DNA of 64,000 bases from assembly GCF_055900595.2 (NCBI RefSeq), contig NZ_CM148325.1; one strand, 5' to 3'. A program made the position numbers and the translations under genes. The first letter of the stretch is position 1. Each line of letters opens with the position of its first letter. This document shows, one piece after another, positions 57,807 to 60,953 of the stretch. Below the pieces are notes generated by a model, which ran no database searches, was not told the origin of the DNA, and saw nothing but the letters and a program-made list of their open reading frames with translations.

Positions 57807-58307
57807 TCATGAATAAACCCCTTGCTCTATTCGAAAAATGAGCATGGCAACTTTCAACACCCCCTCTTCTGAGTCCATTATCTCGGAGGGCGTTTTCCAC
57901 TGTAATGCTCTGTTTGGTTCATTGCACCAGTTTAATGCTGCACTTTCGTTACCTTCAAAAAGATCAATAGCCTTTTGAAGAACATCATTTTTTGTCAGCA
58001 TGTTTTACACCTGAAGACGTTTTGAGTGCTTCGATAAGACTACTTCGCTCTTCCTCTGTCATCCGGGATATGAGCAATGCAAGTTCTGCTGTTGTCTGAT
58101 CATCACAAAAAAGTAGTTCAACGGCACGTTTAACTCTGCCGCCATCCGTCGAATCGTATCAATATCGGGGACATGGCGCCCTTTCTCATAATGATTCATA
58201 CGACTGCTAGCCGATGCGGGATCAAAGCCAACATGAAGAATTGATAATTGCCGTGCCGAGCAGAGAAAATGAATTCCGGAAACTTTCTCTTGAGCAAGAT
58301 AAAACAC
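57807..58307 (-). pseudogene. Xre-family HTH plus DUF2384 (ParS/MbcA-type antitoxin-like) gene, disrupted by frameshifts
   Basis: N-terminal HTH fragment (...RMNHYEKGRHVPDIDTIRRMAAELNVPLNYFF) and separate C-terminal ORF with the DUF2384 signature (AALNWCNEPNRALQWKTPSEIMDSEEGVLKVAMLIFRIEQGVY); frames differ and are interrupted at T6/A6 runs. Confidence 0.55.
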
Positions 58308-58413
58308 ATATTAAGATAAATAAAAAAATAAAAACACTGATTAGGATTGGTAATAAAAATATTACAATAAGGCAATGAATTTTAAAAAGGATTTGAAGTT
58401 TAATACAGTCATT

Positions 58414-58446
58414 AAAAAGAGAGGGCAAAGCCGACCCCGCCCTCTC
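58414..58446 (-). terminator. rho-independent terminator (minus strand) ~0.5 kb downstream of the LRR gene
   Basis: GAGAGGGC...GCCCTCTC hairpin followed on the minus strand by a U-run. Confidence 0.5.
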
Positions 58447-58950
58447 CCTTCATGCACTGATAAGCCTCACTAATAGGAGTGTTAGCAGCGCGTACCACTG
58501 TATGCTAGACCTGAAAAATATAATCTCAGTCAGTCCCAGATGCAACCTTTAACACTTCAACGCAACAAATTAAACAACGAATAGCCACAAACGTGTAGAC
58601 AGTGCACTGATACGGATAAAAGTAACGCTCCTGAATTGCTCAATCAATGATATATACCCTGTTTTACTGACATATCTGACAGCGGGTGGATTTCCTTCAA
58701 TTATTGATATAACACCACACGCACTACATCTGTCTCCACCAGAATATGAGGTGAAATTGTTGCGCACCGGTTAATCCGGGTGTACTGGTCAAACTGTTTT
58801 TACGGTGCGCCTGTTTTATAGCCTTCAGTTGCGCAATGCGTCGACTTCGCATGGTTTTCCTCATGACTGCCGCTTTACCATTGCGCAATTCGCCGATGTA
58901 GTCGGTGCCCCCCGGAAAATCAAACGGTTCTGGTTGTTCTCTGTACTGCT

Positions 58951-60477
58951 TCAGGGCGTATAGCCCGATACCTCAACAGACGGGTTTTCCCCGGAGCGAG
59001 GCCTCTGGGGTTCATAATTAATCGTACAGCCAAAGTACCAAGCGTTCGGCCGGCTGGGCGGCAGGCTGGGCTTGCTGGTCAGTTTGTTCCAACACACATT
59101 AAGCATCTCCAGTCCGCTGGGCAGGCGGTCCGGCAGGCTGGTCAGCTGGTTATGACTCACATCAAGCACCTTCAGCCTGACGGGCAGCACCGGCAGATGG
59201 ATCAGCTGGTTATTACTCACATTAAGCGTCCTCATATAGCCGGGCAGCTCCGGCAGGCTGCTCATGAGGTTAAAACGCACATCAAGCGTCACCAGCCCGG
59301 CGGGCAGCGCCGGCAGGCCGGACAGCTGATTATTACTCACATCAAGCATCACCAACCCGGCGGGCAGCACCGGCAGGCTGCACAGATGGTTTTTACACAC
59401 ATAAAGATGCTTCAACCCGTCGGGCAGGACCGGCAGGCTGTCCAGCCAGTTTCTTCTCACATCAAGCTCCTCCAGCCCGGTGGGCAGCTCCAGCCCGGTG
59501 GACATGAAGAGATTGTTTCCACCCACATTAAGGTGCTTCAGCCCGGCGGGCAGGACAGGCAGGCTGCACAGCCGGTTTCTACTCACATCAAGCTTCTTCA
59601 GCCCGTCGGGCAGGACCGGCAGGCTGTCCAGCAAGTTTCTTCTCACATAAAGCTCCTCCAGCCCGGTGGGCAGGACCGGCAGGCTGCACAGCTGGTTTCC
59701 ACTCACATCAAGCTTCTCCAGCCCGGCGGGCAGCTCCGGCAGGCTGGTCAGCATCAGATTTGCCAGTTCTAGTTCCAGTGCCGAAGCTCTATTGCATGCT
59801 CTATTGTATATATATGCCTTCACCCTACTAAGAGCTTCTGCCCTGTTTTCCCCGGGAGCATTTACCTTGGCCCAGGCACGCCATGCCGTTATCTGGGCCA
59901 CCCAGTCCGGGACTTTATCGATATACTTCCGGAGCAGTTTACAGTGTGGTTTATCGCCAGTCAGAGTTACAGACAACGCTACTTTTGGCATACCTGGTAT
60001 GTACATTGTCATGATGGGCTCATCGACGACGGACAGGTTCAGTAAGAGCCCTATCGGCGGGTCTTCCTTTTTGGCCGGGATGGTGTAAATATTGGGATTG
60101 TCTGTGGACTCGAAGCTCAGGAACATATTTGTCAGCTGCTCACTTTTGGTCAAACATTGATCGTGAAGGAGGGAACGACAAACCATGTGGATGAAAGTTT
60201 CTTCGGATGCGTTGTGTAATATGGTTGTATAATCTGATGAGGATAAATCATCCCAGTTTTCTATCTTGCTGGTCTTGCTGTTCTTGCTGTTCTTGCTGTT
60301 CTTGCTGGTCTTGCTGGCTGCGATATCGTTTAATGAATTGTTTAATAAATCGGTTAATACATAGCCGATATGAAGACGGTTTGCTGTCTGGCTGGATTTA
60401 TCGGGTGCCCAATATTCATTTTCATTGGGTTTAACATATAAACCGGATGCGCCGGATAAAGAAGTAGGCTGGAGCAT
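58951..60477 (-). CDS. leucine-rich repeat protein, IpaH/SspH/SlrP/YopM-type LPX repeats, no C-terminal NEL E3-ligase domain (T3SS effector-like)
   Basis: About twelve 20-aa repeats LPxGLxxLxVxxNxLxSLPV; pre-LRR cap AWRAWAKVNAPGENRAEALSRVKAYIY...LMLTSLPELP resembles the IpaH/SlrP cap; RBS GAGG upstream; N-terminal SKN/SKT repeat. Confidence 0.75.
   Translation of the reverse strand: MLQPTSLSGASGLYVKPNENEYWAPDKSSQTANRLHIGYVLTDLLNNSLNDIAASKTSKNSKNSKNSKTSKIENWDDLSSSDYTTILHNASEETFIHMVCRSLLHDQCLTKSEQLTNMFLSFESTDNPNIYTIPAKKEDPPIGLLLNLSVVDEPIMTMYIPGMPKVALSVTLTGDKPHCKLLRKYIDKVPDWVAQITAWRAWAKVNAPGENRAEALSRVKAYIYNRACNRASALELELANLMLTSLPELPAGLEKLDVSGNQLCSLPVLPTGLEELYVRRNLLDSLPVLPDGLKKLDVSRNRLCSLPVLPAGLKHLNVGGNNLFMSTGLELPTGLEELDVRRNWLDSLPVLPDGLKHLYVCKNHLCSLPVLPAGLVMLDVSNNQLSGLPALPAGLVTLDVRFNLMSSLPELPGYMRTLNVSNNQLIHLPVLPVRLKVLDVSHNQLTSLPDRLPSGLEMLNVCWNKLTSKPSLPPSRPNAWYFGCTINYEPQRPRSGENPSVEVSGYTP
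60265..60318. repeat. 9-bp tandem repeat (CTTGCTGKT x6) inside the LRR gene 5' region
   Basis: Six consecutive 9-bp units encoding the KTSKNSKNSKNSKTSK tract; unit length preserves the reading frame. Confidence 0.8.
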
Positions 60478-60721
60478 GATACCTCACAAAAATGTGTTGA
60501 TGAAAAGCCGGATTCTGTCCATATTCCCGTGAACCGGCTATCAAAATTCGCGCATTTTGCCAGGTATTCATGTGGTTAAAATTTATCTGGTGCGTTTCCG
60601 GTGGTTTTGCAGTTCACCAGCTACAATCGCTAGCAACGGCACATTTATACTCAACATAAGTTAAATCATATTGACTGTTAACTTACTTCATGAACCAAGA
60701 TGCATCGTCAATGGCGGCTTA

Positions 60722-60953
60722 ACATGGCGTCCTGTCTCATAATGATTCATACGACTGCTAGCCGATGCAGGGTCAAAGCCAACAAGGAGACCCAGAGAGC
60801 GCTGTGATAATCCCGCCCTGCATCTCGCTTCCTTAAGTCGCTCTGGTATCGGATTTTTTTCAGACACTGATTCATCTTCATTTGCCTCGAATGCTTAGAA
60901 CGAAGAATGGAATGAATCGTATCATCATGTGACCCCGTAAATTTCTCGTTCAA
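60722..60953 (-). pseudogene. second Xre-family HTH regulator fragment (truncated, frameshifted)
   Basis: Encodes ...IRYQSDLRKRDAG / LSQRSLGLLVGFDPASASSRMNHYETGRH across two frames; shares a ~62-bp near-identical segment with the gene at 58172-58233. Confidence 0.45.

Follow-up and report, generated by a model that had tools for sequence, protein, structure and literature searches.

The window analyzed here is a stretch of 64,000 nt from contig NZ_CM148325.1 (NCBI RefSeq assembly GCF_055900595.2), and downstream of hipA it carries a gene for a 508-aa leucine-rich repeat (LRR) protein (58951–60477, minus strand) that lies between two pieces of a gene for an Xre-family helix-turn-helix (HTH) regulator. 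The LRR protein is built of LPX-type repeats of 20 residues, as in YopM, SspH2 and IpaH. On the far side of the right xre piece lies an ankyrin-repeat gene (61179–63143, plus strand, as annotated in RefSeq), which is context and not part of the repeat. The two xre pieces share a direct repeat, and the initial annotation had read the arrangement as an LRR cassette inserted into, or recombined between, xre genes; the origin of this repeat is the subject of our analysis, which points to a different history.

The repeat comprises positions 58171–58233 and 60722–60784, two copies of 63 nt that are identical at 59 positions and differ at positions 9, 13, 48 and 51, its extent being the homologous overlap as judged against the intact xre gene. 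A repeat search of the window returned a raw match of 69 nt (58171–58239 versus 60722–60790, 91% identical, at a spacing of 2551), the terminal 6 nt of which are a chance likeness at a deletion junction, and pairwise alignment of the flanks revealed that the similarity ends abruptly on either side of the repeat. The longest mismatch-free run is a core of 34 nt, which is found exactly twice in the 64-kb window, with no occurrence expected from 100 shuffles; the sequence is not of low complexity. Both copies are read on the minus strand and encode, in a common reading frame, the peptide VGFDPASASSRMNHYE(K/T)GRHV, which corresponds to codons 28/29–49 of a 110-aa Xre-family HTH protein (xre gene nt 84–146 in the left copy). 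The right open reading frame (ORF; 60688–60867, 59 aa) runs through MSEKNPIPERLKEARCRAGLSQRSLGLLVGFDPASASSRMNHYETGRHV and then into unrelated residues, and the left ORF (58059–58307) begins with unrelated residues, continues with VGFDPASASSRMNHYEKGRHVPDIDTIRRMAAELNVPLNYFF and ends in a frameshifted tail. Candidate likenesses beyond the repeat, TCAATGGCGG versus TCAATATCGG to the left of 60722 and ARQLSILH versus QRSLGLL in the left ORF, were judged to be due to chance. Much of the initial annotation was borne out at this level: the two segments are indeed about 90% identical, they encode the same stretch of an Xre HTH regulator, two separate (paralogous) xre copies are involved, and beyond the repeat these keep complementary halves of the gene, which are the 3′ half on the left and the 5′ half on the right. 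Its coordinates (58172–58233 and 60722–60783) were correct in location and one base off in register, which has no consequence.

Genome comparisons were carried out by megablast against 5,426 complete Escherichia coli genomes, the set to which counts of complete genomes refer throughout. The entire 6.3-kb region is present in only a handful of these strains, the xre sequence by itself in more than 200 of them, and the xre segment also on about 140 enterobacterial plasmids. The comparison with genomes in which xre is uninterrupted, suggested by the initial annotation, found an intact xre gene at the same site in E. coli EC23HZZ201 (locus L002), the locus and the window occupying the same chromosomal position downstream of hipA. 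Its 110-aa product (WP_001300511.1, VSEKNPIPERLKEARCRAGLSQRSLGLLVGFDPASASSRMNHYEKGRHVPDIDTLRRMAAELNVPLNYFFCDDQTTAELALLISRMTEEERSNLIEALKTSSGVKYADKK) matched RstR/PuuR-type XRE models and PHROG repressor families in a profile search, and the window fragments, which are collinear with this full-length gene at 94–96% DNA identity, can be assigned to HTH_XRE. The gene order in EC23HZZ201 begins at the left end with an ECSE_1600 autotransporter gene, hipBA, two site-specific integrase genes and a 788-aa hypothetical gene, continues with a 144-aa gene, a DUF2384 gene, xre, a divergent 186-aa gene (hyp186) and variable cargo, and closes with a yneL-like HTH fragment and the ydeT-ydeQ fimbrial operon. 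In this island xre overlaps the 64-aa ORF for DUF2384 (MbcA/ParS/Xre antitoxin C-terminal), and hyp186 is the native, divergently transcribed neighbor of xre in the intact islands. The two integrases are clear tyrosine integrases, and the 788-aa gene gave no signal as a recombinase in Pfam, PHROGs, NCBIfam or the sequences of the PDB. Strain SWHEFF_68 has the same layout with different cargo.

The window is a mosaic of pieces of such an island. Positions 57267–58239 match L002 4001–4976 at 96.4% and cover the ginD-like small gene, the DUF2384 ORF and the 3′ part of xre; 58233–58552 correspond to the 3′ end of hyp186 and downstream sequence (81% to the L002 allele, 93% to the allele of L003 and L015); 58582–58798 is a further island-derived segment, shared with the cargo-side sequence of EC23HZZ201 (L002 6606–6827, 86.5%); and 60722–60899 match L002 4908–5085 at 96.1%, which corresponds to xre nt −32 to +146. 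The ginD-like gene, a 145-aa ORF (57228–57665, plus strand), is a remnant of the end of the recombinase operon, the integrase genes and the 788-aa gene upstream of it being deleted. The DUF2384 ORF of 64 aa (57807–58001, minus strand) is intact, its identity resting on a match of the L002 ortholog to NCBIfam NF049845 (E=1.9e-14) and on the RefSeq annotation of sister genomes, and it lies directly downstream of the left xre remnant (approximately 57987–58233, minus strand). This remnant is the positional ortholog of the intact xre of EC23HZZ201 and retains gene nt 84–333, codons 28/29–110; it has no start codon, it has lost 1 nt in an A-run that shifts the frame after codon 71, and it is unannotated in the RefSeq sister genomes. 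The deletion junction at 58233/58234, which has 1 bp of microhomology, places xre codon 28 directly against the final ~47 codons of hyp186 (58234–58378, plus strand; 93% to the hyp186 of L003/L015, 81–82% to the L002 allele). Comparison across this junction, which is restricted to one haplotype group, showed that the left copy lost its 5′ 83 nt, the promoter region and most of hyp186 in one illegitimate deletion of 588 bp (reference 18884–19471). All junctions at the locus have at most 1–2 bp of microhomology.

The right xre relic (60722–60899, minus strand) is a piece of 178 bp that contains the right repeat copy and comprises codons 1–49 (60722–60867) together with 32 nt upstream of the start codon, all that is kept there; it lacks the last helix of the HTH domain and is labeled an incomplete HTH pseudogene in the RefSeq annotation of sister genomes. 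It is bounded by unrelated DNA on both sides, by the LRR upstream region (60478–60721), which meets the relic at 60721/60722 and is unique to 17 carrier genomes, and by the upstream region of the ankyrin gene, and neither of these has a counterpart in the intact islands. Against about 214 chromosomal and 140 plasmid copies of xre, homology to the relic stops at the identical two nucleotides. The relic carries four private substitutions, three of them inside the repeat. Only 17 of the 5,426 complete genomes match beyond the xre piece (query positions 245–422), and on plasmids the search for the LRR-xre-ankyrin arrangement turned up nothing beyond the 178-bp xre piece.

The LRR gene, the right relic and the ankyrin gene occur together at this locus in 17 complete E. 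coli genomes, as well as in Escherichia sp. KS167_9B, one metagenomic contig and several draft genomes. All mapped carriers share the deletion of the integrases and the 788-aa gene (reference 12456–17907), a second gap (reference 19794–20512) and a junction at 20734, and the right relic is identical in them, private substitutions included, some having one or two extra substitutions (95.5%/94.9% versus 96.1% identity to the reference). The left boundary, in contrast, is of three types. The window-type junction, described above, keeps the 3′ part of xre with the left repeat and is found in 12 complete genomes (including L001, L004, L005 and L006) and in the non-complete L009, L012 and L022–L030, with L019 combining it with an extra deletion. 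In the L007 type (L007, L018 and L020), 625 bp are deleted (reference 18760–19384) and the left repeat is gone, 124 bp of xre that are present in the window being absent. In L017, a deletion of 620 bp (reference 18580–19199) has removed the left xre entirely and has left most of hyp186, annotated there as a frameshifted coding sequence (CDS) of 473 nt. These two types keep 87 bp and 272 bp of hyp186, respectively, beyond what remains in the window, and this additional stretch belongs to the same allele; to either side of the junctions, identity among the haplotypes is about 99%. The three deleted intervals are staggered by about 90–185 bp and are not nested, and each removes the 5′ half of xre, the divergent promoter region and the 5′ end of hyp186. 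The simplest history is that of three independent deletions from one ancestor. That ancestor of the LRR/ankyrin carriers, as the haplotypes show, had the right relic, the LRR gene and a fuller left xre-hyp186 module, which was probably intact. Since the left junctions differ among carriers of the same LRR gene and relic, the LRR gene had arrived before the left edge of the repeat was formed.

Taken together, these results make it very likely that the 63-nt repeat is the accidental overlap of two independently truncated copies of one Xre-family HTH gene in a decaying island. The xre gene belongs to a conserved module that follows the recombinase operon (ginD-like gene, DUF2384 ORF, xre and divergent hyp186) of a GInt/Tn6571-like island inserted just downstream of hipA, and the overlap would have arisen where the deletion of this haplotype happened to stop 63 nt past the start of the older relic. 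No coincidence is needed for this, because only one edge of each copy is novel, and two fragments of one gene, one from its 5′ and one from its 3′ part, must either overlap or leave a gap. The relic itself is probably the leftover of an older second island copy that once stood in tandem at the hotspot; the LRR gene would then be part of the cargo of the island nearer to hipA, and the ankyrin gene part of that of the distal island. A direct precedent for such stacking at the hipA hotspot is E. coli PSS-08-2 (L021, NZ_AP027679.1 2188000–2236000), in which three equally oriented xre-hyp186 modules follow one another beside hipA, integrases being retained only in the module nearest to it, and in which the xre genes are 92.6–95.8% identical to each other, similar to the 93.7% between the two copies of the window. 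The PSS-08-2 modules are separated by cargo of a defense-like and a metabolic kind (an ABC-three-component system, a DEAD/DEAH nuclease-helicase, and tricarballylate and phosphotransferase system (PTS) operons) and by copies of IS1. For the window itself the evidence is of an indirect kind. Among the four differences within the overlap, three are private to the relic and one is allele-informative, the left copy having C (as in L003, L015 and L016) and the right copy T (as in L002, L013 and L014). Outside the overlap, in a part that the left copy has lost in every haplotype, the relic shares three variants with the L013 and L014 alleles. The window looks like a further decayed version of a two-copy arrangement, although its distal copy is only 178 bp long and an origin from a whole island is inferred.

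Several observations weigh against this reconstruction. The second-island origin of the relic rests on the PSS-08-2 precedent and on one allele-informative site, and both xre pieces are nearest to the L002/L013 allele group while the hyp186 piece is nearest to L003/L015, a pattern that, taken alone, would fit one split gene. The 788-aa gene is not confirmed as a recombinase, and membership of the island among the GInts is architectural only. In addition, none of the genomes examined has the arrangement of the ancestor that we infer (an intact left xre-hyp186 module with the LRR gene and the right relic), and nine further draft-genome loci in which an ancestor-like haplotype was sought were all of the window type, some with an additional loss of 73 bp.

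The shared allele group of the two pieces is also what would be expected from a local duplication, in which the resident left xre was the source of the 178-bp relic in the LRR-ankyrin interval, the copy having been made, for instance, as templated filler DNA when a double-strand break was repaired. The shortness of the relic, its being cut at both ends, and the lack of any other remnant of a second island (ginD, DUF2384 or hyp186 sequence) adjoining it agree with such an event. However, the relic and the left copy differ at 4 of 63 positions, one of which is polymorphic among intact alleles, tandem modules are documented at this very locus in PSS-08-2, and no signature specific to a mechanism was seen at the junctions; we regard a local duplication as rather unlikely. 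The insertion model based on the initial annotation, in which the LRR segment entered a single xre gene and 63 bp were duplicated, either as a long target duplication or as the core of attL/attR sites, draws on the geometry: a 5′ half, repeat, insert, repeat and a 3′ half in a single orientation, with halves that resemble the same allele group and that, when joined in silico, are collinear with intact xre genes (96.9% over 449 nt). The repeats of att sites and of transposon target duplications would look alike in this respect, same-orientation repeats bracketing foreign-looking cargo and each continuing into a different half of a seeming target gene. The supposed insert, however, starts with the 3′ end of hyp186, the own neighbor of xre, its left boundary is not constant among haplotypes with a common LRR gene and right relic, and the 5′ half ends at a second junction, 32 nt upstream of the start codon. 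The interval of 2.5 kb has no integrase, transposase or terminal inverted repeat, the ORF list and family searches of 58234–60721 having yielded only the hyp186 remnant and the LRR gene and no recombinase, and the repeat search of the window having found no inverted repeats at the inner repeat edges. Known target duplications of transposons are far shorter than 63 bp; they are short, exact repeats of 2–14 bp that abut terminal inverted repeats, whereas the present copies are 63 nt long, differ at four positions and have no inverted repeats beside them. In the attL/attR sites of integrase-borne islands the comparison fails in other ways: the bracketed segment of the window has no recombinase and the integrases are deleted in all carriers; the boundaries are not uniform among carriers, the L007 and L017 types lacking the left repeat; the bracketed DNA starts with the neighbor gene of the target itself; and no empty site exists, a synthetic empty-site query having matched none of the 5,426 complete genomes at a coverage of at least 80% and the ankyrin-side flank being found in them only together with the LRR upstream region. 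The two independent xre genes without a history of LRR insertion that would speak against the model are essentially what EC23HZZ201 and PSS-08-2 present. With hyp186 at the left edge and staggered junctions in the sister haplotypes, the idea of a cassette inserted into xre was not borne out and is highly improbable. Nor does the repeat appear to be a product of recombination, since its edges stem from separate events of different age and the right relic is cut on both sides.

The remaining proposal is that the repeat works as a substrate of RecA-dependent recombination, by which the LRR gene would occasionally be deleted and a chimeric xre ORF rebuilt, forming an on/off switch. The perfect core of 34 nt in direct orientation, close to the accepted minimal length for RecA-dependent recombination in E. 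coli, would allow this, and in the predicted product an ORF encoding the HTH would be regained, with 71 native codons and a frameshifted tail; a deletion product put together in silico (left flank, one repeat and right flank) runs collinearly with intact xre genes to the point where the relic ends. However, a product continuing into the ankyrin flank was found in none of the 5,426 complete genomes at a coverage of at least 80%, the LRR gene is kept without the left repeat in the L007 and L017 types, the same four differences between the copies occur in every carrier examined with no sign of conversion, and the rebuilt xre would still be frameshifted. Such a switch is the least probable of the explanations considered, and the suggestion of the initial annotation that the repeats might mediate excision or rearrangement found no support. 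With 4 mismatches in 63 positions and a longest perfect run of 34 nt, the repeat is, as judged from its sequence, a poor recombination substrate, and we regard it as non-functional debris that was not created by LRR insertion. A separate question is whether the left deletions reflect selection, either against an Xre repressor that would still have recognized an operator-bearing relic beside the LRR and ankyrin genes, or against a recombinogenic direct repeat of 178 bp through which the LRR gene might be deleted. We consider this improbable, and the similar sizes of the deletions (588, 625 and 620 bp) may be due to chance in a sample of three; were it true, the 63-nt overlap would be the last remnant of a duplication that was once recombinogenic and regulatory.

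The GInts described by Bardaji et al. (2017; PMC5385486) carry ginABCD at one end, with GinC often annotated as hypothetical and cargo right after ginD, and they have been reported at E. coli integration hotspots (PMC10121019). Intact relatives of the window island resemble GInt/Tn6571 in that two tyrosine integrases, a large "hypothetical" gene and a small gene form an operon at one end, in the variable cargo that follows the small gene, and in the fixed chromosomal insertion site; of these parts, the small gene and the first module on the cargo side are retained in the window. The window differs in the absence of the two integrases and the large gene, and the third gene (788 aa) of the intact islands has no detectable domain. 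Islands of the GInt/Tn6571 type are recognized by three consecutive tyrosine-recombinase-like genes with a small fourth gene at one end and cargo beyond it, and by imperfect direct repeats of 10–11 nt at their flanks; with two clear integrases and a fitting small gene and cargo layout, the present island may be called GInt-like on architecture only. Similarly, the HTH_XRE gene followed directly by a DUF2384 ORF recalls the Xre-DUF2384 antitoxins (ParS/MbcA/Xre of the Xre-RES type II systems), with the differences that HTH and DUF2384 are two overlapping ORFs here instead of one protein and that no RES/ParT/MbcT toxin gene is adjacent in any locus inspected. The DUF2384 ORF is missing from several xre alleles.

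In PDB searches the LRR protein matched YopM (1.7e-73) and SspH2 (1.2e-60), and its architecture is YopM-like, an N-terminal domain of about 195 aa being followed by LPX repeats. It shares LPX-type LRRs with the IpaH/SspH NEL E3-ligase effectors, but their C-terminal NEL domain was not found, either with Pfam or by tblastn with an E. fergusonii NEL protein. Outside E. coli, NEL-type E3 ligases of E. fergusonii come closest, with 36% identity that includes the N-terminal domain, and these proteins sit in an unrelated prophage-side context. The LRR protein may be an effector from which NEL has been truncated, and its final ~38 residues resemble read-through into unrelated DNA. Within the gene, 60-bp units (the 20-residue LPX repeats) occur in at least eight in-register copies at 59095–59820, and the length of the gene varies among near-identical strains (CDS of 1203–1707 nt; database orthologs of 339–531 aa), which implies frequent gain and loss of repeats. 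A second small repeat lies in the N-terminal region (60255–60320), where tandem CTTGCTG(G/T)T-type units encode KTSKNSKNSKNSKTSK. The ankyrin-repeat protein of 654 aa has three homolog clusters only among 5.8 billion proteins, all from E. coli or a gut metagenome, and its gene is always next to the LRR gene at the hipA locus, so that it is effectively an orphan of this island. No LRR or ankyrin relative with an intact adjacent xre was found outside E. coli, the orthologs being confined to E. coli and Escherichia sp. in the same arrangement, and a search of the literature returned nothing relevant on an LRR/ankyrin effector pair of E. coli near hipA.

Other parts of the region are variable as well. 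A stretch of 431 bp that strains RMDEC465 and 2020CK-00188 possess is missing from the window (at 60962/60963; L017 6012–6442). It encodes most of an acidic protein of 129 aa (WP_032184246.1), whose size and whose position just upstream of the ankyrin gene are reminiscent of a secretion chaperone. This loss is common to the window and the L007-type haplotype and is absent from L019, which has the window-type left junction, a distribution which implies that lineages have recombined with each other within the island. Downstream of the ankyrin gene (~63150–63900), sister annotations give a partial HTH gene, a partial IS481 transposase gene and a partial alpha/beta hydrolase gene; a fimA-like operon follows these pseudogene scraps, which are further evidence that the interval is a junkyard of eroded insertions. 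On the left, the ORF for a 1,822-aa autotransporter of the ECSE_1600 family (49844–55312) is intact in the window and is annotated as frameshifted or fragmented in L001, L017 and EC23HZZ201. The left island flank is itself variable, a filamentous-phage-like block with Zot, secretin and coat-protein genes replacing hipBA in L018 (1–2464) and L029 (8998–13269) and an ABC-three-component system being present at this flank in L004. An Rfam scan of window positions 57000–64000 gave no match, and consensus scans found terminator-like sites at the number expected from shuffles and 10 promoter-like sites against 5.8 ± 2.3 in shuffles, a weak excess that is not evidence of function.

It is a familiar finding that fragments of pseudogenes overlap where stacked islands erode, and the present case is ordinary pseudogene debris. 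It provides a worked example of how overlapping pseudogenes in stacked, decaying islands can give a virulence-type gene flanks that mimic an att site or target duplication. For annotation, the left xre remnant could be flagged as a pseudogene in RefSeq, and the LRR and ankyrin genes should be regarded as cargo of islands at the hipA hotspot and not as a mobile cassette. The haplotype series is a small natural record of the stepwise erosion of an island.

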